A stretch of 64,000 bases of DNA from Enterobacteria phage vB_EcoM_IME540, in the sequence record MT150133.1. One strand, 5' to 3'. Below the pieces are notes generated by a model. The model worked only from the letters and a program-made list of their open reading frames with translations. It was not told the DNA's origin and did not search any database. Position numbers and translations under genes: made by a program. Shown in pieces: positions 2,827-56,586 of this stretch. Position 1 is the stretch's first letter. Every line of letters begins with the position of its first letter.

Positions 2827-3399
2827 TCAACTCGTTATTTCTATCCAGTGCTTCCTGCACAATGACACGTAAGAATCGTTGCCACCTATAGAAACTTGGG
2901 CTCCGTCCTTAATTGCGATACCATCTTGGATACGAGCCGTCATAGTAGCTTTACGGCCGCAATGGCACACACCTTTGTACTCAACGAGTTTATCTGCCGT
3001 AGCGAGTAATTCAGCAGAGCCAGGAAACAGTTTACCCTGAAAATCAGTTCTTAGCCCATAACACATAACTGGAACATTATAATTGTCTACTATCTTCGCC
3101 AGTTGTTTTATCTGTGCAGGTTCTAAGAACTGTGCTTCATCCACAAATACACAGTGGATATCTTTTTGAGATTCAGCCCAACGATAGAACTCGTATAGGT
3201 CCATATCCGGAGTCACGGCATTAGCCTCTTGACTAATCCCTATACGAGACGAAATGCTATGGCTTGATTCTCTATTGTCTACCGCGGGCTTTAAAAGGAG
3301 TACGCCCATACCACGTTCTTTGTAGTTATGAGCTGCCGTTAGCAATGAAGCGGTTTTCCCGGAATTCATCGCCGCATAGTGAAACATCAAGCTTGCCAT
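2827..3399 (-). CDS. tk: thymidine kinase
   Basis: 190 aa; P-loop AAMNSGKTASLL, C-terminal CHCG...SLCRKHW zinc motif; close match to T4 Tk as recalled. Confidence 0.92.
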   Translation of the reverse strand: MASLMFHYAAMNSGKTASLLTAAHNYKERGMGVLLLKPAVDNRESSHSISSRIGISQEANAVTPDMDLYEFYRWAESQKDIHCVFVDEAQFLEPAQIKQLAKIVDNYNVPVMCYGLRTDFQGKLFPGSAELLATADKLVEYKGVCHCGRKATMTARIQDGIAIKDGAQVSIGGNDSYVSLCRKHWIEITS

Positions 3400-4124
3400 T
3401 TAAATACAACTCCTCTATAAGAGCAATTAGGATAACCTTTGCTTATAGCTATCTTTTTAAACATATATGCTGAAGGCTTATTGGATTCTTCCCATAAGAG
3501 TTTTAATTCATCGTAAAATTTCCAAGATTCGTTTCTTATAGGAGAAGGTTTTCCTGCCATAGCGCCCTTTTTACCGTACATGGGATTCTTTTTGCCCTTT
3601 TTGGCGTTACTCATATTTTCTATGGTTTCAGCGCTATGTTTAAATCCTTTTAATTTTTTAGAGGCTAATCCTATTTTAGCTTTATGCTCATCACTAAATC
3701 CTATTCTATTGGAATAATGGTTTAAACCTTTATTAGAAGTGGTGAATTTAGAAGCTTCTATTCTGGCTTTGCTCCATTTAACTCCTTTTCTAGACCTAGA
3801 CATTTTCTGTTTAGTTAAATTAGATAATTTGGTTCCTTTCTTTTTACCTCTTCCGCCATCAGCAAAATTTAAAGAATGCTTACCATATTTTAATTTAGCC
3901 TTTTCAACTAAAGGAATTTCGGCGGCATACGCCTCTTCTTCAGATTCGAAGAATTCTAATATACGAGTTTTATAAGGATGCTTTTTACAAATATTTTTAA
4001 CTACCGTACCACTTCCATAATACCCGTCTGAAAGATTATCAGTGGAGTGTTTACCTACATAGTAATAATTTGCCTTATGGGTTTTTATTACAGTCAAGTA
4101 ATTATAATGGAATTCCTTTGCCAT
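3387..4124 (-). CDS. GIY-YIG-family homing endonuclease-like protein (seg-like)
   Basis: N-terminal YLTVIK...YYYVGKHST...GYYGSG (GIY-YIG variant); basic region with repeated K/G-rich NPMYGKKG (NUMOD3-like) motifs. Confidence 0.65.
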   Translation of the reverse strand: MAKEFHYNYLTVIKTHKANYYYVGKHSTDNLSDGYYGSGTVVKNICKKHPYKTRILEFFESEEEAYAAEIPLVEKAKLKYGKHSLNFADGGRGKKKGTKLSNLTKQKMSRSRKGVKWSKARIEASKFTTSNKGLNHYSNRIGFSDEHKAKIGLASKKLKGFKHSAETIENMSNAKKGKKNPMYGKKGAMAGKPSPIRNESWKFYDELKLLWEESNKPSAYMFKKIAISKGYPNCSYRGVVFKWQA

Positions 4125-4133
4125 ATTACCTTC

Positions 4134-4340
4134 TTAAAGCGTATTCACATAAGCTATTAATTCGTTTTCTTTCTCATCAAATCGATTGACAAATTCTTCC
4201 TGATGTTCGGGAGATAGCGGGCCATATTCATCATAAAAAGAATTTGCTTCTGCATGCTCATCTAGAAGTTCATGGATAAGCTCAAACAATTTATCTTTCT
4301 GTTCTTTACTCAGACTCATAACCATTGTACCTTTAAGCAA
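4134..4340 (-). CDS. hypothetical small protein (68 aa)
   Basis: ORF track. Confidence 0.4.
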   Translation of the reverse strand: MLKGTMVMSLSKEQKDKLFELIHELLDEHAEANSFYDEYGPLSPEHQEEFVNRFDEKENELIAYVNTL

Positions 4341-4528
4341 TATTCTTCTACATGCTGCTTACGTTTATTTTTATCTATAAAAGTATATTCAACATATTCA
4401 CCGATATACCATTTATCGGTGTTGTGTTGACTTTTTATAGGGCATTTAGTTACTCGGGTTTCGGACCAGTGTCGAATAATTTCCGCTTTATTTTTAGGGT
4501 CAAACGGATGCGGGTAATGGGCTTTCAT
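4316..4528 (-). CDS. hypothetical small protein (70 aa)
   Basis: ORF track; overlaps neighbours, start uncertain. Confidence 0.3.
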   Translation of the reverse strand: MKAHYPHPFDPKNKAEIIRHWSETRVTKCPIKSQHNTDKWYIGEYVEYTFIDKNKRKQHVEEYCLKVQWL

Positions 4529-4967
4529 AATCTACCACCACTAAATTAATATCAGGAGTAAACAAATTAATCAATTGGTAAACCTTGTCCCAATCACCAC
4601 CAGCAATACCACAACCGATGCGAGGAATATAAATTCTTGGTTTAAACAAAAGACCTTTTGCTTGTTGATTTAATTCTATCATACAGTTTACTAAAGCACC
4701 GTAATCAAGATTAGGGCCTGGTTCGTATTGGGTGTATAAATTATAGCAAATTTGGCCCTTATTACCTGTGGCTTGAGTAAACGTGCCAAGTTTTTCCAAA
4801 TGGCCTAAATAAGTGGTTTTATCGATAGCGAGAATAGGCGGATAAGCCTTAGCCAATTGCCCAGCTACACCTGAACCCATTGTGTGGAAACAGTTACACC
4901 CGTGTGCAACATTATTACCTTGAAGAAATAGGGCGACAATATCGCCCTTAATATAATCAATAATCAT
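4500..4967 (-). CDS. macro-domain-like protein (putative ADP-ribose binding/hydrolase)
   Basis: 155 aa; motifs GDIVALF...N...GSGVAGQ and C-terminal IPRIGCGIAGGDW resemble macro-domain glycine-rich loops; assignment from motif recognition only. Confidence 0.45.
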   Translation of the reverse strand: MIIDYIKGDIVALFLQGNNVAHGCNCFHTMGSGVAGQLAKAYPPILAIDKTTYLGHLEKLGTFTQATGNKGQICYNLYTQYEPGPNLDYGALVNCMIELNQQAKGLLFKPRIYIPRIGCGIAGGDWDKVYQLINLFTPDINLVVVDYESPLPASV

Positions 4968-5320
4968 TTAGAGTTTAATCCTCGATTGTATGAATCAACG
5001 AGTCTGTCTACCATAGACGCGCACATTTCTTTGTACTTTTTATCAGATGGAATACATTCAGTAACGTTTAGACGTTGCTCGTATCTTTTAGAAAGAGTTT
5101 TCTCTTTCATTCGACGATGCTCTACGTCGTTCTGCCCATCTTTAAAAGCAGCCGTGATTTTTGAACTGAATTCGATAATGCATTCAGTATTACTCGGATG
5201 ACAATAATCTTTTGCTGTACGGGTAGCATACTCGACAATTGAATTATTACTATCATAAACTTGTGACGCTAATACTCCCGGAGCAATCAACATAAGCGCT
5301 ATAGTCATCTGCTTAATCAT
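4964..5320 (-). CDS. putative secreted/periplasmic Cys-containing protein (118 aa)
   Basis: N-terminal signal-peptide-like MIKQMTIALMLIAPGVLASQ; four Cys in mature part. Confidence 0.45.
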   Translation of the reverse strand: MIKQMTIALMLIAPGVLASQVYDSNNSIVEYATRTAKDYCHPSNTECIIEFSSKITAAFKDGQNDVEHRRMKEKTLSKRYEQRLNVTECIPSDKKYKEMCASMVDRLVDSYNRGLNSK

Positions 5321-5884
5321 TTAATATACCGCCTCAAACATCTTTTTAGATTTTAGATAATTGGCCTTTTCTAGAACTTCAGAAGCATATTTACTGCCTG
5401 CTTCGACGTTCCAGCCCGCATTATAAGAAGCAATCGCTTTTCTCAGGTCACCTTTGTGAACATCAATCCAATAAGACAGTTCAATGTAGGCCCAAGAGGC
5501 ACTGTTCTGTCGTTTTTGGACCATACGAATTATTTCTTTGTCTGACATCTTCCAACCTACCTGTTGAACACGACTTCTTAACGTAGGCAAGTAATTTTGG
5601 AACATGCCATAAGCATGGTGCTTATCTTTATTTAAACCCTGATTAATTCCGGCAGATGATTCCTGCCATAGTAATCCGGCCATAATATATCCTAATCCTT
5701 TTTGATTAGGGGTTTCTTTGAACTTTCCCGACTTTTGGTATTGTTCACCGAAAGCATACGCATAATGTAAATTATCGAGCTGGGTTTCTGTAAATACGGG
5801 TTCTGCTGCACTTACAGAAAACGAACCACACATAATAGCCGCTATTAAAGAATATTTAAGTTTTTTTAGAAAAATCATAATCAA
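5321..5884 (-). CDS. putative secreted lytic transglycosylase (SLT-domain-like)
   Basis: Signal-peptide-like N-terminus; motifs LLWQESS ... AYGMFQ ... ASYNAGW match the E-S / GLMQ / AYNxG pattern of SLT domains. Confidence 0.5.
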   Translation of the reverse strand: MIMIFLKKLKYSLIAAIMCGSFSVSAAEPVFTETQLDNLHYAYAFGEQYQKSGKFKETPNQKGLGYIMAGLLWQESSAGINQGLNKDKHHAYGMFQNYLPTLRSRVQQVGWKMSDKEIIRMVQKRQNSASWAYIELSYWIDVHKGDLRKAIASYNAGWNVEAGSKYASEVLEKANYLKSKKMFEAVY

Positions 5885-6590
5885 TAAGTCCTCGGTAATC
5901 TACATTAGGGAAGCCGTTCTTAATTGCGATTTTACTAAATCTTCCACACTTGAGCTTATTATTATCTACCCATAATTTATATAATTGTGAATACATCGGT
6001 TCATGCCATATAGGGGATTTACGCAAAGAGGCTTTTTTCCTTTCTATAGTTTCTTTAGAATTTTGTATGGCTTTAAATTTTTGTCTATTTTCAGGATTTT
6101 CAAAATACTTAACCCGTTTTTCAGACATTTTAGCTTTTACTTTTGGCGAATTTAAAATTTCTTTGAGCCGTTCTTTAGAGCCTTCCTTTTCAAAATACTT
6201 TATTAAAGCCATTGAATGAGCAGCCCTATTTTCCTTTTTAGAGAAAAATAAAATTTTATTAATAGATTGCAATTTTGAAAATGATTCTTTAGCCAACTTA
6301 TAATTTTCAGAATCTACAAAATAAGACCTTTGTTTTGAATTTGAAGTAGAGCTCATATTTAACCAGGCAAAATTCAACCCATAGTGGTTTGGATTAGCTT
6401 TGGCTAGATACATATGGGCCAAATAATGTTCATCAGCATAAAGCTCAACTAAATTGTCTTGAGTGTCAGGACCACCAACACAACTCGGAATTATATGATG
6501 CTTTTCTGTATAGGCGTCATTAGGTGTATCCCTAGATAAGGCCGCATTTATTATTTTATAGTAGTCATATGGATATTTTATAGTTTCCAT
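5856..6590 (-). CDS. HNH-family homing endonuclease-like protein (mob-like)
   Basis: N-terminal EKHHIIPSCVGGPDTQDNLVELYADEH (HNH motif); basic C-terminal region; C-terminal KIAIKNGFPNVDYRG module shared with the ORF at 3387-4124. Confidence 0.65.
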   Translation of the reverse strand: METIKYPYDYYKIINAALSRDTPNDAYTEKHHIIPSCVGGPDTQDNLVELYADEHYLAHMYLAKANPNHYGLNFAWLNMSSTSNSKQRSYFVDSENYKLAKESFSKLQSINKILFFSKKENRAAHSMALIKYFEKEGSKERLKEILNSPKVKAKMSEKRVKYFENPENRQKFKAIQNSKETIERKKASLRKSPIWHEPMYSQLYKLWVDNNKLKCGRFSKIAIKNGFPNVDYRGLIDYDFSKKT

Positions 6591-6597
6591 ACTGTCC

Positions 6598-7056
6598 TCA
6601 CAAGTAAATTACTTTCGTGCTGGTTTTACCTTCTAAACGTTTAGAGTTAACAAATGCCATACGACATTTAAGGGAATATCCTTTATCAGGATGTTTACGG
6701 TCTACTGTCATACCTAGCCATAAGGTTTTATCGGTAATTTCGAGACGCAATGGCCGATACACTTTACCAGGGACAATTTCGGATTCTACATCAGGCAGAG
6801 GTTCCTGGATTAAGAATTCATGGATTTCTTTAACATGGTTATGGAGTTGCTTGAATAAAGCAAAAACGTATTTTTCGTCGATTTCACGTTGGATAGCACG
6901 GTCCAACAAGTGGTTAGAGTACTTAATAAAGAAGGCTGGGACTCCGCTCTTAATGGCGGCTTTTTTGATGGACGTATTCAGTTCACGGAATTCGGTTTCG
7001 AACTGACGACGTAATTTATTGCGGCGGATGAATACTTCTGAATTAATTTCTGACAT
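6598..7056 (-). CDS. regB: RegB-like endoribonuclease
   Basis: 152 aa; EVFIRRNKLRR...HLLDRAIQREIDE...LEITD..LWLG resemble T4 RegB as recalled; position between tk and denV as in T4. Confidence 0.6.
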   Translation of the reverse strand: MSEINSEVFIRRNKLRRQFETEFRELNTSIKKAAIKSGVPAFFIKYSNHLLDRAIQREIDEKYVFALFKQLHNHVKEIHEFLIQEPLPDVESEIVPGKVYRPLRLEITDKTLWLGMTVDRKHPDKGYSLKCRMAFVNSKRLEGKTSTKVIYL

Positions 7057-19032: not shown

Positions 19033-19698
19033 TCAAAATTTTATTTTACGGCCTTTATTCCAACCTTCAGGAATAATATCCGTTTTGTTAATACGTTTAG
19101 AAACTTTTTCTTCTAAAGAATGAATCCACATTTTTCCATATCCGGAATTATTTTCACCTTGTTGGTGTTTATTTCTGGCGTGAGATTCTTTCATTTTATT
19201 TTTGGTTTCATCTGAATGGGTCTTACCCAAGAAAGATTTAGTATTTGAAAATTTCTCTCTATACTTAGGATTATCCCAAAGTTGTTTAAACCTTTCCGAA
19301 CCCATTTTACGATATTTTTCTTTAAGGTCTGGGTCGTTCTCAAATCTGGTTTTAAAAGCGGCAACTCCTTTTAAGGAAGCTTCTTTCTTTTTATCTAAAT
19401 ATTCTTCAGTGTTTAAATGGTCCCAACCACCTTCACCACCTAATTTCAAATTATAAACATCAGGGCGCTTTAAAAACTCTTCAGTCACAATATTCTTTTC
19501 TGACTCAAACATAGAGGTTTTATCGTCAAAGAACTCTAATATTTCTTTAGAGAAATTTTCTATACCGTATTTGACCTGGGCCCTTTTTAAGAGTTTACCA
19601 GAACCAAAATATGCATCATTCAAATTTTCGGTTGAATGGGCGCCTATATAGATTTTATTATTAATTTTGTTTGTTATTTTATAAGTGTAATGGAACAT
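19033..19698 (-). CDS. GIY-YIG homing endonuclease-like protein (segB-like, within tRNA cluster)
   Basis: N-terminus YTYKITNKINNKIYIGAHST...YFGSG; sits between two tRNA genes as segB does in T4. Confidence 0.7.
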   Translation of the reverse strand: MFHYTYKITNKINNKIYIGAHSTENLNDAYFGSGKLLKRAQVKYGIENFSKEILEFFDDKTSMFESEKNIVTEEFLKRPDVYNLKLGGEGGWDHLNTEEYLDKKKEASLKGVAAFKTRFENDPDLKEKYRKMGSERFKQLWDNPKYREKFSNTKSFLGKTHSDETKNKMKESHARNKHQQGENNSGYGKMWIHSLEEKVSKRINKTDIIPEGWNKGRKIKF

Positions 19699-40053: not shown

Positions 40054-42216
40054 ATGATTAACAAATTGGAACTTAGTGAGTTACCATTTGTTGACGGCGT
40101 ACCTGATGCTCCTCAAAAGCGTATCCAATGGATACGCGAGGGTGATTGTATGTCTGCAGCAAAAACAAAATACGGCAATGAAGGTAATTTGAACGCTGCT
40201 GCTTTAGGAGTTCAGAAAAACGTTGAAGCTCTTGATGCGAATGATTTGAAAACAGCAGATAAAGTTAACGAACTGGTAGAAAACGTTAATAATATCAATG
40301 ATGCCTTAGAAATGGCTACTGATATTTCCGTCATCCAGCAAATTGAGAAAAACCGTGTTGATATCGTGGACCTTAAAAAGGTTACTTCAGAAACAACAGG
40401 AAAATTGGATGAGTTAACCACCAATTTTGATTACTTGCGTGAAGACGTTGGTTACCATGACCCTTTACAAGACGGCCCATATTTAACTGTACGTGAAAAT
40501 ATTGTTCTTCTTAAAACCGAAATAGGTCATTATGAAAACCAGGATATAAATGGCAATCCATTGCCTCCGGGTGAAACCAATGAAGCCACTGGTATGAAAC
40601 GTCGCATCATTGATAATACCACTCAATTGGTCGACCATCGTCTTCGCATTGATACCCTTGAAAGGAATTATGAAGATTCTGACGTCGGGCAACTAGGTAT
40701 TAAATTAAATGAAATTCGTGCTGAACTTGGCCCTCATTCTGATACTGTAGGTAAACAACCGGCTTATACCCGAATTTCTGTATTAGAAACGGCTGCAATT
40801 AATTTCAATACATCTATCGACGAAATTAAGACTAATATTGATTTCTCCGGTATGCCTATAAAGGACCGAGTAACTACTTTAGAAAGCAAAACTCTTACCC
40901 TAGAAAATTCAGTCAACGTTGATTTAAAACCTCGTGTAACATCAATTGAAACCCAAATAGGATCCGAATCAACTCCTACTTCTATTAATGGGCGTTTGAG
41001 CGGTCTTCGCACCGATGTAAATGACCTTAAAACCATAGTAGGTGTTAGTTCAAGTGATGGCTTACGTTTCCAAGTTACTGATATCAACCGCCGTTTAGGT
41101 GGTGAAGTATCTCCGGCAGCTGGGACCATTAATAAGCGTTTAAATGACGTTATTATCCAAGCAAACCAATCTACTTCATCTATCCAGGATATTCAAGTAG
41201 AAATTGGAAATAACCAATCCGGTATTAAGGGTACTTTACTTAAACTCACCAATAAGGTTGACGGGACAAACCCTAACGGTGCTACTGTAGAAGAACGTGG
41301 TCTTATTAACGCGGTTACTTCTTTAGAAACCCAGATGTTAGGTAAGTTGAATGATGCCCCTTCCGATGGTAAACTTTATGCTCGTCGTAATGCTACATGG
41401 ACCGAAGTTCCTAACGTTTCTACTGAAATAGAATCTGTTAAGGATGATTTAGTTGTTACCGATGGTAAAGTGGCAGCTTTAACTTCTAGAGTCGATGGTA
41501 ATGATACCTCAATTTCTTCTCTTGATACTCGCACCGGTGCATTAAACACTTCGGTTGGTGAGATTAAAGCAGATATCGTTACTATAAAGGCTAAAGACCT
41601 TGAACAGGACAGTCGTTTAACAGCACTTGAATCTAGTGATGTTACTGTTAATGGAAAAATAACGGCACTTGAATCTAAAACCGATACCACCGATTCTGAT
41701 GTTACCGCTTTGGCCTTAGATGTGAGTTCTATAGAATCACAATTAATTCCTATTAAAGCTGATATAACTAAGAACAAAGGCGATATAGTTACTTTAACCG
41801 GACGAGTAGCTGCTAATGAAGGTGAAATTGCCGATATTAAATTAGACACCGCTAAAATAGCTCCTTTGGCTACTCGAGTCACTACTGCTGAAGGTAAAAT
41901 TACCACCTTAGAAACAGGTTTGGCAGCAGTTAAAGTTGAATCCGATAAAGTTGCAGGAATCAATACCCGTTTAGGTACGGTAGAAGGTAAAGTTGGTACT
42001 CTTGAAACAGGTTTAGCAGCGGTTAAAGTTGAATCTGATAAAGTTGCTGATTTAGGAACCCGTTTAACTGCGGCTGAAGGTAAAATCACTGCACTAGAAA
42101 CTGAGTTGGCCAAACGCCCTCCTGTTGCTCCTGTTGCTGATGGACTTCCATATGTTCTTGTTGATAATGCGTGGGTGCTATTGTCAGATTTTGTGACTTT
42201 AAACCCAGCACCATAA
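40054..42216 (+). CDS. wac: fibritin (whisker antigen control), extended
   Basis: 720 aa coiled-coil; N-terminus ELSELPFVDGVPDA; C-terminal foldon-like ...DGLPYVLVDNAWVLLSDFV; internal 93-bp tandem repeat. Confidence 0.88.
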   Translation: MINKLELSELPFVDGVPDAPQKRIQWIREGDCMSAAKTKYGNEGNLNAAALGVQKNVEALDANDLKTADKVNELVENVNNINDALEMATDISVIQQIEKNRVDIVDLKKVTSETTGKLDELTTNFDYLREDVGYHDPLQDGPYLTVRENIVLLKTEIGHYENQDINGNPLPPGETNEATGMKRRIIDNTTQLVDHRLRIDTLERNYEDSDVGQLGIKLNEIRAELGPHSDTVGKQPAYTRISVLETAAINFNTSIDEIKTNIDFSGMPIKDRVTTLESKTLTLENSVNVDLKPRVTSIETQIGSESTPTSINGRLSGLRTDVNDLKTIVGVSSSDGLRFQVTDINRRLGGEVSPAAGTINKRLNDVIIQANQSTSSIQDIQVEIGNNQSGIKGTLLKLTNKVDGTNPNGATVEERGLINAVTSLETQMLGKLNDAPSDGKLYARRNATWTEVPNVSTEIESVKDDLVVTDGKVAALTSRVDGNDTSISSLDTRTGALNTSVGEIKADIVTIKAKDLEQDSRLTALESSDVTVNGKITALESKTDTTDSDVTALALDVSSIESQLIPIKADITKNKGDIVTLTGRVAANEGEIADIKLDTAKIAPLATRVTTAEGKITTLETGLAAVKVESDKVAGINTRLGTVEGKVGTLETGLAAVKVESDKVADLGTRLTAAEGKITALETELAKRPPVAPVADGLPYVLVDNAWVLLSDFVTLNPAP
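41890..42110 (+). repeat. in-frame 93-bp tandem repeat (~2.4 units) inside wac
   Basis: GAAGGTAAA(A/G)T... units start at 41890, 41983 and 42076; encode repeated TLETGLAAVKVESDKVA segments. Confidence 0.7.
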
Positions 42217-42239
42217 TAAAAGGGCTTCGGCCCTTTTTT
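42217..42239 (+). terminator. intrinsic terminator after wac
   Basis: GGGC-TTCG-GCCC followed by TTTTTT. Confidence 0.6.
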
Positions 42240-42241
42240 GC

Positions 42242-42249
42242 TATAAATA
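42242..42249 (+). promoter_or_regulatory. late promoter (TATAAATA) for gene 13
   Basis: Exact TATAAATA 22 nt upstream of ATG. Confidence 0.6.
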
Positions 42250-42270
42250 CGGTTATTAGAGGAATAAACC

Positions 42271-43206
42271 ATGGCAAGTGAATCATATAACCCTAAGCAA
42301 CTCAAGGACGCAATCCTGCGCCGCCTGGGTGCACCGATTACGAATATTGAAGTAACTACAGACCAAGTATACGATTGCATCCAGCGCGCCCTGGAGCTCT
42401 ACGGTGAGTATCATTATAACGGCTATAACAAAGGTTATCAGGCTTTTTATATAGGCCATGATGACGAAGAAAAATTCCGTAACGGCGTATTTGACCTTAA
42501 AGGCCGTAATATATTTGCGGTAACACAAATTTTAAGAACTAATGTAGGTTCTTTAACATCTATGGATGGCCAAGCGACTTATCCATGGTTTACTGATTTT
42601 GTATTAGGCCTAGCTGGTATTAATGGCGGTCTTGGAACTTCTTGTAACAGCTTTGGGCCTAATGCCTTTGGTGCTGACCTCGGGTATTTTACACAATTAA
42701 TGCAATATCGTTCTATGATGCAGGACCTTTTGGTTCCATTGCCTGATTATTGGTATAACGATGCCACTGAACAGTTGAAGGTAATGGGTAACTTTGTTAA
42801 AGGCGATTTTATTGTAATTGAAGTTTATACTCGCTCTTTTAATGGGGTCGATTCTATGGTAGGAAATACCGCAGGATATGGATATGCCTCTGGTGGGTGC
42901 GACGAAAATGAATGGAGCCCCGGAGCTATTTGGGATAACCCGGCTCGTCGTATTTCAGGTATGAGGGCAGGTGAAGACCTTGGTTTGCAAGATGGTTCAT
43001 ATAATAACCGTTGGGTCAAAGATTATGCGACGGCATTGGTTAAAGAAGTCAATGGTAATATTTTGGCCAAACACCAAGGCATGCAACTTGCGGGTGGAAC
43101 CACTGTAGATGGTATTCGATTGATTGAAGAAGCTCGTTTAGAAAAAGAACGCCTTCGCGAAGAATTAGATTTACTCGACCCACCAACACCTATTTTAATT
43201 GGATAA
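42271..43206 (+). CDS. 13: gp13 neck protein
   Basis: 311 aa; synteny; TATAAATA upstream. Confidence 0.85.
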
Positions 43207-47227: not shown

Positions 47228-49210
47228 ATGGCTTTATTATCACCGGGCATTGAGCTCAAAGAAACGTCCGTACAGAGTACTGTCGTTCGTAACGCAACGG
47301 GTCGTGCAGCGCTGGTTGGTAAATTCCAGTGGGGCCCTGCTTTCCAGGTAACTCAAATTACTAACGAAGTTGAACTGGTGGATTTGTTTGGAGGTCCTAA
47401 TAACGAAGTTGCTGATTACTTCATGTCGGGTATGAACTTCCTCCAGTATGGTAACGACCTTCGTACTGTTCGTGTTGTTAACCGTGAATTCGCTAAAAAC
47501 GCGTCTCCGGTAGCGGGTAACGTCCAAACCACTATTACTACTGCAGGTTCTAACTATGCGGTAGGCGATAAAATTAATATCAAATATAACCAGACTGTTG
47601 TTGAATCTGAAGGTCGTGTAACTTCGGTCGATACAGACGGTAAAATTCTATCAGTGTTTATTCCTACCGGCAAGATTATTTCTTATGCTCGTTCTGTTAA
47701 CCAGTATCCGAACCTAGGCCCTGCGTGGACTGCTGAAGTTACTTCTGCCTCTTCCGGTGTTTCTGGTACTATTACTGTCGGTAAAATTGTAACCGATTCC
47801 GGTATTCTGTTGACTGAAGCAGAGAACAGTGAAGAAGCTATTACTTCCCTGGAGTTCCAAGCATCTCTTAAACAGTTTGGTATGCCTGGTGTGGTCGCCC
47901 TTTATCCTGGTGAAATTGGTAGTACTCTAGAAGTTGAAATTGTTTCTAAAGCGGCTTATGATGCTGGTTCTACTAAAATGTTGGATATTTATCCAAACGG
48001 TGGTACTCGTGCTTCTGTAGCTAAAGCGGTATTCAACTACGGCCCTCAGTCCGATAACCAGTATGCTATTATTGTTCGTCGTGATGGTGCAATCGTAGAA
48101 TCCGTCGTACTTTCTACCAAAGAAGGCGAAAAAGACGTTTACGGTAATAACATCTATCTGGATGATTATTTCGCTAAAGGCACTTCGAACTATATCTTCG
48201 CTACCTCTCTGAACTGGCCGGCCGGTTTTAGTGGTATCATCAATCTTATGGGTGGTGTATCTGCTAACGATCAGGTTACTGCGAGTGATTTGATGCAGGG
48301 TTGGGATTTGTTTGCCGACCGTGAAGCACTCCATATTAACCTTTTGATTGCTGGTGCCGTTGCCGGTGAAGGTGATGAAGTTGCTTCTACCGTCCAGAAA
48401 CACGTTGTTAGTATTGCTGATGAACGTCAGGATTGCTTGGCATTTATTTCTCCTCCTAAAGGACTGTTGGTTAACGTTCCATTGACTCGTGCAGTAGATA
48501 ATCTTATCGACTGGCGTACCGGTGCAGGTACTTTCGATACCAACAACATGAACATTAGCACCACTTATGCTGCTATTGATGGTAACTATAAATATCAGTA
48601 TGACAAATATAATGACGTAAACCGTTGGGTGCCTCTGGCCGCTGATATGGCTGGTTTGTGTGCACGTACTGATGATGTTTCTCAGCCTTGGATGTCTCCG
48701 GCAGGTTATAACCGTGGCCAGATTCTTAACGTTCTGAAATTGGCAATTGAACCACGTCAAGCACAACGTGACCGCATGTACCAGGAAGCTATTAACCCAG
48801 TTGTTGGTTTTGCTGGCGGTGATGGTTTCGTATTGTTTGGTGATAAGACTGCAACTAAAGTTCCATCTCCGATGGACCACATTAACGTTCGCCGTCTGTT
48901 CAACATGCTTAAGAAAAATATCGGTGATGCCTCTAAATATAAACTGTTTGAATTGAACGACAACTTCACTCGTTCAAGCTTCCGTATGGAAGTTTCTCAG
49001 TACTTAGATGGTATTAAGGCACTTGGTGGGATTTATGAAGGACGCGTGGTTTGTGATACTACAGTGAACACCCCTGCGGTTATCGACCGTAATGAGTTTA
49101 TTGCTAATATCTACGTTAAACCGGCCCGTTCTATTAACTACATCACGTTGAACTTCGTTGCAACGAGCACTGGTGCTGATTTTGATGAATTGATTGGACC
49201 TTTAGTATAA
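47228..49210 (+). CDS. 18: tail sheath protein gp18
   Basis: 660 aa; MALLSPGIELKET... ; synteny. Confidence 0.92.
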   Translation: MALLSPGIELKETSVQSTVVRNATGRAALVGKFQWGPAFQVTQITNEVELVDLFGGPNNEVADYFMSGMNFLQYGNDLRTVRVVNREFAKNASPVAGNVQTTITTAGSNYAVGDKINIKYNQTVVESEGRVTSVDTDGKILSVFIPTGKIISYARSVNQYPNLGPAWTAEVTSASSGVSGTITVGKIVTDSGILLTEAENSEEAITSLEFQASLKQFGMPGVVALYPGEIGSTLEVEIVSKAAYDAGSTKMLDIYPNGGTRASVAKAVFNYGPQSDNQYAIIVRRDGAIVESVVLSTKEGEKDVYGNNIYLDDYFAKGTSNYIFATSLNWPAGFSGIINLMGGVSANDQVTASDLMQGWDLFADREALHINLLIAGAVAGEGDEVASTVQKHVVSIADERQDCLAFISPPKGLLVNVPLTRAVDNLIDWRTGAGTFDTNNMNISTTYAAIDGNYKYQYDKYNDVNRWVPLAADMAGLCARTDDVSQPWMSPAGYNRGQILNVLKLAIEPRQAQRDRMYQEAINPVVGFAGGDGFVLFGDKTATKVPSPMDHINVRRLFNMLKKNIGDASKYKLFELNDNFTRSSFRMEVSQYLDGIKALGGIYEGRVVCDTTVNTPAVIDRNEFIANIYVKPARSINYITLNFVATSTGADFDELIGPLV

Positions 49211-49391: not shown

Positions 49392-50075
49392 ATGATTACT
49401 AATACTCTATTTGAAATACCTATAACAAATCGTAACGTTTCTGCTTTTAAAAATCTTGGGTATCAAGTTAAAAGTGGGAGCTCCCATTTAATAAAATTAG
49501 AAGACTGCCCTGGAAAAATTGCTGTTACGTGTAAATGTGATAAATGTGGCACTTATTATACTGTAACAAAAGGGCGACTTAATGAAACCAATTCTAAGTT
49601 CTGTAAAGAGCATCGTTGGGAAGTCTATTCAGAAACAAGAAAAGAATATTGGAATTCTGATGAAGGCATAAAAATCCGTAAAACCAAAGGGCCTAAAATT
49701 TCTAAGTCTAAAAAAGGTATAAAGATTGAAGCTTGTTCAGGACCTAAAAACGGAAGATGGAATCCTAACAAATCTGAACGTAATAAATATTATTATTCAG
49801 TGAGGTCTTTTACTAATAAGACTTTTAAAGAAGAAGTTGATAATCTACCAAATAGACATCTAAGCGGGATATGTGGTGTTAAAGGAGCTTATCAATTAGA
49901 CCATAGGGTATCTATCAAATATGGATTTGAAAATGGCGTCCCTCCCGAAATAATAGGACACATTTGCAATCTAGAAATGATTCCTTGGGAAAAGAATCGA
50001 AGTAAAGATTCTAAAAATAGTATAGATTTAGATATGCTATTCCATTTAATTGAAGAATATGATAGGAAACACTAA
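49392..50075 (+). CDS. HNH homing endonuclease-like protein inserted between genes 18 and 19
   Basis: 227 aa; Cys-rich N-terminal zinc-finger-like CKCDKCG...CKEH; C-terminal HNH-like LDHRVSIKYGFENG...NLEMIPWEKNRSK. Confidence 0.6.
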   Translation: MITNTLFEIPITNRNVSAFKNLGYQVKSGSSHLIKLEDCPGKIAVTCKCDKCGTYYTVTKGRLNETNSKFCKEHRWEVYSETRKEYWNSDEGIKIRKTKGPKISKSKKGIKIEACSGPKNGRWNPNKSERNKYYYSVRSFTNKTFKEEVDNLPNRHLSGICGVKGAYQLDHRVSIKYGFENGVPPEIIGHICNLEMIPWEKNRSKDSKNSIDLDMLFHLIEEYDRKH

Positions 50076-54189: not shown

Positions 54190-55005
54190 ATGCTTAAAGA
54201 ACAACTGATCGCCGAAGCACAGAATATTGATGCTTCCGTTGCTCTTGACAGTATTTTCGAATCAGTTAATATTTCTCCGGAAGCAAAAGAAACTTTCGGC
54301 ACTGTATTCGAAGCTACCGTCAAGCAACACGCCGTGAAACTGGCTGAATCTCACATCGCTAAAATCGCTGAAAAAGCGGAAGAAGAAGTCGAGAAAAATA
54401 AAGAAGAAGCTGAAGAAAAAGCCGATAAGAAAATCCAAGAAGCTGCCGGTCGTTTCCTTGACCACGTTGCTAAAGAATGGATGGCTGAAAACCAGCTGGC
54501 TGTTGATAAAGGTATTAAAGCCGAACTGTTCGAATCCATGTTGATGGGTATGAAAGAACTGTTTGTTGAACACAATGTGGTTGTTCCAGAAGAAGCAGTA
54601 GATGTTGTTGCTGAAATGGAAGAAGAACTCCAAGAGCAGAAAGATGAAACCGCTCGTCTGTTCGAAGAAGTTGGTAAGCGCGACGCGTATATTAATTACG
54701 TACAGCGTGAAGTTGCTGTTACGGAAGCAACTAAAGACCTGACTGAATCCCAAAAAGAAAAAGTTAGTTCTCTGGTAGAAGGCATGGATTATTCCGATGC
54801 ATTCGGTAAAAAAATTGGCGCTATTGTTGAAATGGTTAAAGGTCAATCTGACGTTGAAAACCCAATCACCGAAGCCGCTATAAATAAAAATGTAGACGAT
54901 GCTGCGGCACTGAATTACATTTCAGAAGCAGTTGAAGAAAAAGGCGCTAAGCCTACCCTGTCCTTCGCGGACCTGTCTGCAATCGCAGCATCACGAATTT
55001 CTTAA
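54190..55005 (+). CDS. 22: prohead core scaffold protein gp22
   Basis: 271 aa, Glu/Lys-rich helical; TATAAATA at 54155-54162 upstream. Confidence 0.88.
   Translation: MLKEQLIAEAQNIDASVALDSIFESVNISPEAKETFGTVFEATVKQHAVKLAESHIAKIAEKAEEEVEKNKEEAEEKADKKIQEAAGRFLDHVAKEWMAENQLAVDKGIKAELFESMLMGMKELFVEHNVVVPEEAVDVVAEMEEELQEQKDETARLFEEVGKRDAYINYVQREVAVTEATKDLTESQKEKVSSLVEGMDYSDAFGKKIGAIVEMVKGQSDVENPITEAAINKNVDDAAALNYISEAVEEKGAKPTLSFADLSAIAASRIS
54889..54896 (+). promoter_or_regulatory. late promoter (TATAAATA) for gene 23, inside 3' end of gene 22
   Basis: Exact TATAAATA ~130 nt upstream of gene 23 ATG. Confidence 0.5.
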
Positions 55006-55026: not shown

Positions 55027-56586
55027 ATGAAAAAGAATGCATTAGTTCAAAAATGGTCCGCTCTGCTGGAAAACGAAGCCCTTCCTGAAATCGTGGGTGC
55101 TTCTAAACAAGCTATCATTGCTAAAATTTTCGAAAACCAGGAACAAGATATTCTGACCGCTCCTGAATACCGTGACGAAAAAATCTCCGAAGCATTTGGT
55201 TCTTTCCTGACCGAAGCTGAAATTGGCGGTGACCACGGTTATGATGCTACCAATATCGCAGCTGGCCAGACTTCTGGTGCTGTAACTCAGATTGGGCCGG
55301 CAGTAATGGGTATGGTTCGTCGTGCTATTCCTCATCTGATTGCTTTTGATATTTGTGGTGTTCAGCCTCTGAATAACCCTACCGGCCAGGTATTTGCCCT
55401 TCGTGCAGTTTATGGTAAAGACCCTATCGCTGCTGGCGCTAAAGAAGCTTTCCATCCGATGTATTCTCCGGACGCTATGTTCTCTGGTCAGGGCGCTGCT
55501 GAAACTTTCGAAGCACTGGCTGCAAGCAAAGTTCTGGAAGTTGGTAAAATTTATTCTCACTTCTTCGAAGCTACCGGTGCTGCACACTTCCAGGCTGTTG
55601 AAGCCGTAACCGTTGATGCTGCTGCTACTGATGCCGCTAAACTGGATGCTGCTATTACCGCTTTGATTGAAGCTGGTAAGTTGGCTGAATTGGCTGAAGG
55701 TATGGCTACTTCTATCGCTGAACTTCAGGAAGGCTTTAACGGTTCCCAGGACAACCCGTGGAACGAAATGGGCTTCCGCATCGACAAACAAGTTATCGAA
55801 GCTAAATCCCGTCAGCTGAAAGCAAGCTATTCTATCGAACTGGCACAGGACCTTCGTGCAGTACACGGTATGGATGCAGATGCTGAACTGTCCGGTATCC
55901 TTGCTACCGAAATTATGCTCGAAATCAACCGTGAAGTTATCGATTGGATTAACTACTCTGCACAGGTTGGTAAATCTGGTATGACCAACACCGTTGGCGC
56001 TAAAGCTGGTGTGTTTGACTTCCAGGACCCGATTGATATCCGTGGTGCTCGTTGGGCCGGTGAGAGCTTTAAAGCCCTTCTGTTCCAGATTGATAAAGAA
56101 GCAGCCGAAATCGCTCGTCAGACCGGTCGTGGTGCTGGTAACTTCATCATCGCTTCCCGTAACGTAGTTAACGTACTGGCTGCAGTTGATACTTCTGTAA
56201 GTTATGCAGCTCAAGGTCTGGGTCAAGGTTTCAACGTTGACACAACCAAAGCAGTATTTGCCGGTGTTCTTGGTGGTAAATATCGCGTTTACATCGACCA
56301 GTATGCACGTTCCGATTACTTCACCATCGGTTATAAAGGCGCTAACGAAATGGACGCAGGTATCTACTATGCTCCGTACGTTGCACTGACCCCGCTGCGT
56401 GGTTCCGATCCGAAGAACTTCCAACCGGTAATGGGCTTCAAAACTCGTTACGGTATCGGTATCAACCCGTTCGCTGACCCGTCTGCACAGGCTCCTACCA
56501 AACGTATTCAGAGCGGTATGCCTGACATCGTTAACAGCCTTGGTCTGAATGGTTACTTCCGTCGCGTATATGTTAAAGGTATCTAA
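55027..56586 (+). CDS. 23: major capsid protein gp23
   Basis: 519 aa; synteny; late promoter within 3' end of gene 22. Confidence 0.95.
   Translation: MKKNALVQKWSALLENEALPEIVGASKQAIIAKIFENQEQDILTAPEYRDEKISEAFGSFLTEAEIGGDHGYDATNIAAGQTSGAVTQIGPAVMGMVRRAIPHLIAFDICGVQPLNNPTGQVFALRAVYGKDPIAAGAKEAFHPMYSPDAMFSGQGAAETFEALAASKVLEVGKIYSHFFEATGAAHFQAVEAVTVDAAATDAAKLDAAITALIEAGKLAELAEGMATSIAELQEGFNGSQDNPWNEMGFRIDKQVIEAKSRQLKASYSIELAQDLRAVHGMDADAELSGILATEIMLEINREVIDWINYSAQVGKSGMTNTVGAKAGVFDFQDPIDIRGARWAGESFKALLFQIDKEAAEIARQTGRGAGNFIIASRNVVNVLAAVDTSVSYAAQGLGQGFNVDTTKAVFAGVLGGKYRVYIDQYARSDYFTIGYKGANEMDAGIYYAPYVALTPLRGSDPKNFQPVMGFKTRYGIGINPFADPSAQAPTKRIQSGMPDIVNSLGLNGYFRRVYVKGI

Follow-up and report, generated by a model that had tools for sequence, protein, structure and literature searches.

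A C-terminal three-helix module shared by Seg-type GIY-YIG and Mob-type HNH endonucleases of T4-like phages

In the 64,000-nucleotide stretch of Enterobacteria phage vB_EcoM_IME540 analysed here (record MT150133.1; hereafter the window), two endonuclease genes with unrelated nuclease heads, a Seg-like GIY-YIG gene (A) and a Mob-like HNH gene (B), end in a common C-terminal module of about 50 residues. This module is a discrete, widespread and previously unnamed NUMOD-like family to which the tails of both A and B belong. Homology, distribution, domain autonomy, predicted fold class and the presence or absence of the genes were all computed in this work. The two genes and their domains, with amino acid (aa) positions and the evidence in brackets, are laid out as follows; HMM stands for hidden Markov model, ORF for open reading frame and AF2 for AlphaFold2 models.

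3387..4124, minus strand: gene A, putative free-standing Seg-like GIY-YIG homing endonuclease of 245 aa, between tk and tk.2 (ORF, phrog_314)
3831..4112, minus strand: N-terminal GIY-YIG nuclease domain of A, about aa 5-98 (custom HMM, BLAST to the window paralogs C and D)
3567..3647, minus strand: best NUMOD3 motif of A, aa 160-186, with a second copy upstream in the linker (Pfam PF07460)
3390..3548, minus strand: C-terminal three-helix module of A, aa 193-245 (module HMM, 68 bits; AF2)
5856..6590, minus strand: gene B, putative free-standing Mob-like HNH homing endonuclease of 244 aa, between vs.1 and regB (ORF, phrog_655)
6351..6578, minus strand: N-terminal HNH (beta-beta-alpha-metal) nuclease domain of B, about aa 5-80 (Mob-type HNH HMM, motif alignments, model)
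6024..6311, minus strand: all-helical linker of B, aa 94-189 (AF2; repeated 'PE.R.K..S'-type motifs)
5862..6032, minus strand: C-terminal three-helix module of B, aa 187-243 (module HMM, 74 bits; two-residue-insertion subtype, W-H-E-P-M-Y)

A sequence-only reading of the window had claimed that a GIY-YIG and an HNH enzyme share one C-terminal module. Both ORFs are present where it placed them, on the minus strand and with the C-terminal sequences it quoted, and the shared module is borne out by the alignments: BLASTP of A against B returned a single match (A156-240 / B170-236; 30 of 85 positions identical; E 5e-10), and Smith-Waterman alignment of their last 55-58 residues scored 101 against 23.9 +/- 4.8 for 5000 shuffles (z ~16). 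The N-terminal 150 residues of the two proteins scored 35, the level of their shuffled counterparts (32.5 +/- 5.6), and therefore the nuclease heads are unrelated. The same reading had named three checks, all of which came out in its favour: the pairwise alignment of the tails is significant far above chance and not confined to a few residues, the HMM search of the module delimits a discrete family of about 50 residues on GIY-YIG and HNH heads, and structure prediction models the module on its own as a three-helix, helix-turn-helix (HTH)-like unit.

The product of gene A is identical to a vB_EcoM_IME540 protein annotated as 'putative site-specific intron-like DNA endonuclease'. The N-terminal GIY-YIG catalytic domain characteristic of Seg-type enzymes was recognized in A by its assignment to phrog_314 in PHROGs (E 2e-27), by a score of 101 bits on a custom iterated GIY-YIG HMM and by BLAST matches to the window paralogs C and D (E 1.8e-12 and 3e-11), both of which pass the Pfam GIY-YIG model; that model alone is weak on A (E 0.72). 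Two stretches of A match NUMOD3 (PF07460; E 3.9e-13, 49.5 bits vs a gathering cut-off of 20.4). On these sequence grounds we class A as a Seg-type GIY-YIG enzyme with NUMOD3 motifs and predicted nuclease activity.

Gene B falls in phrog_655 (E 2.5e-36), and a Mob-type HNH HMM, of which T4 MobD is another match, gives it 93.6 bits; the Pfam HNH model stays below threshold (E 0.011; 16.3 bits vs a cut-off of 21.4). Its HNH motif (EKHHIIP..GG.D..NLV..H...H) aligns to those of 6me0 and 6ghc, and 55 homologues show little or no variation at H31, H32, N46, H55 and H59. The AF2 model of the full-length protein (mean predicted local distance difference test score, pLDDT, 96.3; predicted template modelling score 0.69) contains a beta-beta-alpha HNH core made up of strands 29-32 and 47-50 and helix 52-65. 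The HNH motif expected of Mob-type enzymes is hence found in B by motif alignment, conservation, the Mob HMM and the modelled core, and B is best described as a Mob-type HNH enzyme with putative nuclease activity. NUMOD3 has no Pfam match in B, whose linker has helical repeats of its own, modelled as helices 94-117, 119-134, 138-146, 149-164, 166-176 and 179-189 (pLDDT >95); the module helices follow at 199-209, 215-224 and 233-243. The linker can be read as an array of helical hairpins with a repeated 'P-E-x-R/K-x-K-x-S' motif, and the same repeats occur in T4 MobD (aa ~100-195) and in several Mob-like carriers of the module. This helical-repeat linker of B and MobD may represent a second undescribed linker module.

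How far the module extends beyond A and B was addressed at several levels. Searches with either tail (tblastn) matched 198 and 153 phage records, within genes annotated as segA, mobE, mobD, GIY-YIG or HNH endonuclease. All 10 carrier genes fetched from annotated phages end in the module motif; these lie upstream of uvsX, 56, 60, uvsY, 43, 47, 45 and uvsW.1, with a further one in a 261-kb Straboviridae phage. T4 itself carries the module twice, in SegA (aa 163-217) and in MobD (aa 197-249; 67 bits; its cluster includes UniProt P39241). Searches with full-length A and B retrieved mostly homologues of the nuclease heads, with the module only in close orthologues. A profile of nine module sequences, run against 1.84 billion protein cluster representatives, identified 112 proteins at E<=1e-3, of which 36 reached E<=1e-10. 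Classification of these 112 carriers with iterated HMMs, for which confirmed Seg and Mob heads served as seeds, gave 46 with a GIY-YIG and 40 with an HNH N-terminus, the other 26 being mostly short fragments, with 2 spurious repeat proteins. The module ends no more than 10 residues from the C-terminus in nearly all representatives, and about 18 of them bear two to three copies in tandem.

A few carriers were found outside the T4-like phages, to which the module is therefore not confined. On a 472-kb chromosomal contig of Vibrio vulnificus (GCA_033086955.1; 6001-6792 of the fetched locus) an HNH enzyme with the module lies beside a Terminase_6 gene, a neighbourhood that is probably a prophage, with a group II intron reverse transcriptase gene a few kb away; V. 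cholerae has the identical protein on record. On a phage contig that is not T4-like, a gene upstream of TerS, TerL and portal genes (735-1901 of its locus) encodes a GIY-YIG protein of 388 aa in which the module is present twice, and a SegE-type GIY-YIG fragment adjoins it on the opposite strand. As for proteins consisting of the module only, a 52-aa ORF (P0083) directly follows a 154-aa NUMOD3-bearing ORF (290-921 of the locus). A separate class of stand-alone module proteins was considered and rejected, P0083 being clearly a piece of a split nuclease gene, apparently interrupted by a stop codon or frameshift; P0070, another module-only protein, comes from a 648-bp contig too short to judge, and the same kind of decay may have produced several further short representatives that consist of the module alone.

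The distribution of the module on both heads raises the question of how often it has changed partners. In an alignment of 134 copies, the copy nearest to a given module in another protein came from its own nuclease class in 64 cases out of 108, where random labelling gives 54.3 +/- 6.1, figures to be read with the limited phylogenetic signal of a 50-residue domain and the 50%-identity cluster level in mind. Module pairs from opposite classes reach 59% identity, and the W-H-E-P-M-Y insertion subtype seen in B, which occurs mostly on HNH enzymes, appears once on a GIY-YIG enzyme. Module sequences thus compared suggest repeated exchange between the two enzyme classes and not a single ancient divergence. 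The idea of domain shuffling between homing endonucleases, put forward in the sequence-only reading, agrees with module similarities that barely track nuclease class, with tandem copies and with the presence of the module on both heads. The modules of A and B are only ~36-42% identical and each has closer relatives elsewhere, therefore no recent exchange took place between these two genes; the swap occurred neither between A and B nor in the genome of the window, and the same relationship links SegA and MobD in T4. A six-frame HMM scan detected no further copy of the module in the window, and none is present on the other four ORFs listed as endonuclease-like in that reading. The possibility that module similarity follows the insertion locus was examined too and rejected, the closest cross-class pair, VPA32 (GIY-YIG) and P0074 (HNH), being at different loci.

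The consensus of the module is W-x2-Y-D-E-L-Y-x-L-W-x2-N-x-K-P-x4-F-R-K-I-A-V-x2-G-Y-P-D-x2-Y-x2-M-V-x2-F. AF2 modelling of the isolated module (aa 193-245 of A) with a 90-sequence alignment (mean pLDDT 84) placed helices at module positions 5-21 (kinked), 27-36 and 45-52, and the same three helices are present in the full-length model of B. The modules are basic, with a median isoelectric point (pI) of 9.5. Column analysis revealed an invariant hydrophobic and aromatic core and basic residues kept at module positions 4, 5, 24, 31 and 32, with the highest variability at the exposed helix-3 positions 45, 46, 49 and 50; this is the pattern expected of an HTH with a diversifying recognition helix. 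The nearest structural neighbours of both models, ARR1 (8xas), LUX (5lxu), PHR2 (7d3t), Sap1 (6ext) and MATalpha2 (1k61), align over ~46-51 residues at a root-mean-square deviation of ~2.0-2.9 Å, and are weak matches, with none below E 5 in Foldseek searches of the PDB. As modelled, the module may share with Myb/SANT, GARP and homeodomain-like domains a three-helix bundle, an aromatic core and a basic N-terminal arm. From the fold neighbours, the charge and pI, the position in the protein and the conservation pattern we infer that the module binds DNA. It occurs on two unrelated nuclease folds, is predicted to fold independently and is found in tandem copies, all of which are NUMOD-like traits.

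The following picture would accommodate these observations. A and B would be built as beads on a string, with an N-terminal nuclease head, a helical linker and the shared basic three-helix module at the C-terminus. The linker, consisting of NUMOD3 in A and of NUMOD3-like repeats in B, probably tracks the DNA groove, and the module, as an autonomous HTH-type domain of putative Myb/homeodomain-like fold, would most likely serve as a distal DNA anchor away from the cut site. The conserved basic residues R4, K5, K24, R31 and K32 may contact the DNA backbone and the hypervariable exposed residues of helix 3 may tune sequence preference, while the N-terminal head would cut (GIY-YIG) or nick (HNH) at a distance, as in I-TevI and I-HmuI. 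Among T4-like phages, and on occasion in other phages, the module would have moved between the two nuclease classes repeatedly. Its binding to DNA, its anchoring role and the nuclease activity of A and B are all predictions, and we consider this explanation as a whole, with its DNA-anchoring module and repeated exchange, to be probable. Two points weigh against it. Some of the class mixing could reflect phylogenetic noise and not separate swaps. In addition, modules that are 59% identical belong to enzymes at separate places, that of VPA32 lying upstream of uvsY and that of P0074 between genes 59 and 33; therefore the module alone does not set the target locus, and target choice must also depend on helix-3 residues, the linker or the nuclease head.

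That same pair lends some weight to a different function, in which the module would be a protein-protein or dimerisation domain that recruits the nuclease to a phage replication or recombination factor or pairs monomers for cutting of both strands. One conserved module at many loci (upstream of uvsX, 56, 60, uvsY, 43, 47, 45, uvsW.1, tk and vs.1) would fit such a role, and so would the structural weakness of the matches to DNA-binding folds. However, the strongly basic character of the modules (median pI 9.5), the focusing of variability on helix 3, as for a recognition helix, the tandem arrays and co-occurrence with NUMOD3 typical of DNA-reading strings, and the position of the module, which is that of the HTH in I-TevI and I-HmuI (PMC2988022), all speak for DNA; moreover, unrelated phage types that also carry the module would not share a T4-specific partner. 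We therefore regard a protein-interaction role as unlikely. About equally doubtful, in our opinion, is that the module recognises a feature common to the targets of all carriers instead of being a locus-specific reader; candidates for this feature are a shared phage or host replication/recombination protein, or a generic property of the DNA, for instance the promoter or translation-start region of the essential gene downstream, or else a recombination intermediate. If true, this would place target choice in the linker and the nuclease head, and would explain the finding of one module at a dozen loci, always directly upstream of a conserved gene.

Coming back to the module as a DNA anchor, its relation to the modules already described has to be considered. 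NUMOD1-4 were reportedly defined by Sitbon and Pietrokovski in 2003. The NUMODs are small nuclease-associated DNA-binding modules common to GIY-YIG, HNH and LAGLIDADG homing endonucleases (PMC1564403, PMC2330249), and the GIY-YIG and HNH endonucleases of phages are strings of such small DNA-binding modules, some of them common to both families (PMC2988022, PMC1564403, PMC2330249). Our module resembles them as a short, autonomous and sometimes repeated unit, C-terminal to the head and present on unrelated folds, which also co-occurs with NUMOD3, but it matches no Pfam NUMOD model and is distinguished by the signature W-x9-W ... F-R-K-I-A-V-x2-G-Y-P-D-x2-Y-x2-M-V-x2-F. The isolated module has no match in Pfam (E<=10), NCBIfam or PHROGs, its profile returned nothing below E 0.78 from PDB sequences, and across 111 module members NUMOD1 (PF07453) is missing from the 25 families hit most often at E<=0.01. 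Alignment (hhalign) to the I-TevI DNA-binding domain (1i3j residues 46-116, sequence verified) gave a probability of 0.2%. Therefore, with this value and no Pfam match, the module is by sequence not NUMOD1/IENR1.

The C-terminal unit of I-TevI (1i3j) consists of a strand plus an HTH. Unlike it, the module is made up of three helices, with a Trp-rich helix at its N-terminus. That the module is nonetheless a highly diverged version of the NUMOD1/IENR1 HTH of I-TevI-type enzymes seems to us less probable still than either of the alternatives above; what it has in its favour is that each of the two is a small HTH-type unit placed at the very end of a modular homing endonuclease, after NUMOD3 (PMC2330249). 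The C-terminal HTH of I-TevI and I-HmuI likewise lies at the extreme C-terminus, after a minor-groove-binding helix or NUMOD3, and presumably holds an extended, monomeric endonuclease on the DNA as its distal anchor (PMC2988022, PMC2790892), but it has no detectable sequence relation to the module in the case of I-TevI, and neither enzyme is among the structural neighbours listed.

Two further explanations concern the origin of the similarity between A and B itself. It could be a by-product of nucleotide constraints at gene overlaps, or of recent gene conversion between the two loci, given that both modules are encoded at the extreme 3' end of their genes, that A and B both overlap the start of the next gene and that a conserved gene directly follows the nuclease gene in each of the phages examined. 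The overlaps span only 13 to about 23 nt out of ~160 nt, though, the A and B modules share just 36-42% of their residues and have closer homologues elsewhere, internal and tandem copies far from gene ends keep the pattern, and conservation tracks the hydrophobic core and helix periodicity of a confidently predicted fold, all of which render this origin very improbable. A chance match of a few residues, for which only the short length of the region speaks, is refuted by the BLASTP E value, the shuffling z score and a profile that draws 112 proteins at a library-wide E<=1e-3, and its likelihood is practically nil.

Among known enzymes, the closest parallels to A and B are T4 SegA (GIY-YIG) and MobD (HNH), which have the same C-terminal module, A being SegA-type and B MobD-type by their N-termini. 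They differ in their loci (beta-gt/uvsX and nrdC.11/mobD.1 for the T4 genes; tk/tk.2 and vs.1/regB for A and B), and the modules of A and B have diverged from theirs, the module profile giving 68 bits on A and 74 on B vs 67 on T4 MobD. The C-terminal regions of Mob proteins have been described as 'specific to each protein' or 'distinct' (PMC2790892, PMC2988022), and within the searchable literature corpus, to which this absence is limited, we found no mention of a C-terminus shared by SegA and MobD. A comparable behaviour is known from the T5orf172 homing endonucleases, which swap domains with CapR, DUF723 or RepA_N DNA-binding modules (Barth et al. 2023, PMC10448857). They have in common with our enzymes that DNA-binding modules are repeated, that repeats stand in tandem inside a gene and that binding regions pass from one nuclease gene to another, whereas T5orf172 is another nuclease family with zinc-finger modules and the module reported here crosses two unrelated nuclease folds.

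The principle of module sharing is already well documented, and the common tail of A and B is one more case of it, incremental and unsurprising to specialists. What is new is a defined, searchable domain of ~50 residues, recognisable by a clear signature and known from over 100 diverse representatives, to be added to the set of DNA-binding modules of homing endonucleases. It would improve the annotation of Seg and Mob genes of T4-like phages labelled as 'hypothetical' or in generic terms, and the module common to SegA- and MobD-type enzymes corrects the textbook view that every Mob protein has a C-terminal region peculiar to it. With helix 3 hypervariable and the scaffold constant, the module provides a means of connecting its own sequence with that of the target. 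I-TevI has already been used in engineered monomeric nucleases, for which the module might serve as a compact targeting unit.

The genomic setting of A and B was analysed by comparison with related phages. The phage of the window is a T4-like coliphage of the Dhakavirus/JS10/IME08 group, and its minus-strand gene order in this region is regB, B, vs.1, vs, tk.4, tk.3, tk.2, A, tk. A 4.3-kb stretch around A and B matched 652 phage records, with a top identity of 95-97%; only 3 of these cover at least 80% of the query (all 83%), most close relatives covering 64%, because the two nuclease genes are the missing parts. Both genes are absent from the close relative KIT01, as revealed by the blastn breakpoints, so that A as a Seg-type and B as a Mob-type gene are each free-standing and show presence/absence in collinear phages. 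The neighbouring genes and the insertions relative to KIT01 are:

2827..3399, minus strand: tk (thymidine kinase), directly downstream of A
5321..5884, minus strand: vs.1-like gene, directly downstream of B
3396..4119, no strand assigned: insertion A, 724 bp, into the 9-bp tk/tk.2 spacer (blastn breakpoints)
5780..6601, no strand assigned: insertion B, 822 bp, replacing 96 bp that comprise the vs.1 5' end and the 12-bp vs.1/regB spacer (blastn breakpoints)

The insertions have left marks on the adjacent sequences. On the tk.2 side of A (4120-4270) there are 20 mismatches to KIT01 in the first 150 nt, against a background of ~1-2 per 50 nt, and the first codons of tk specify MASLMFHY in the window vs MAQLYFHY in KIT01. 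The ~27 N-terminal residues of vs.1 diverge from those of KIT01, and its signal-peptide-coding 5' end is replaced outright. Overall, the flanks at 4120-4270, 3350-3399 and 5780-5884 appear far more divergent from KIT01 than the 96-97% background. Such flanks could be co-conversion tracts or changes of the target site that protect the carrier genome. Together with the insertion polymorphism, the divergence of the flanks would fit free-standing homing endonucleases.

With its final 13 nt, A overlaps the start codon of tk (overlap sequence ATGGCAAGCTTGA), and the 3' end of B likewise overlaps the start of vs.1. The ATG of A (window positions 4100-4130) shares its ribosome-binding-site context (..CTTTAAGAAGGTAATATGGC..) with tk of the nuclease-free KIT01 (880-910 of the KIT01 locus). 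In effect, insertion A has taken over the translational start region of tk, which in the window restarts within the last codons of A.

With regard to the remaining ORFs of the window, the sequence-only reading had counted six endonuclease-like genes. Five of them hold up, namely A, B and the GIY-YIG ORFs at 19033, 25833 and 50638; the sixth (49392-50075, plus strand, 227 aa) has no nuclease match in Pfam or PHROGs and falls in phrog_5104, a family of unknown function. By eye, this protein has a Cys-rich N-terminus (CPGK..CKCDKCG..CKEH) and a C-terminal stretch (QLDHRVS...N..EMIPWEKN) resembling an HNH motif, and it stays a candidate nuclease only. Finally, long antisense ORFs (194-460 aa) were noticed within plus-strand genes in the structural-gene half of the window (41376-42380, 47927-48880, 54262-54846 and 55042-56424, all on the minus strand), and these are probably spurious reading frames.

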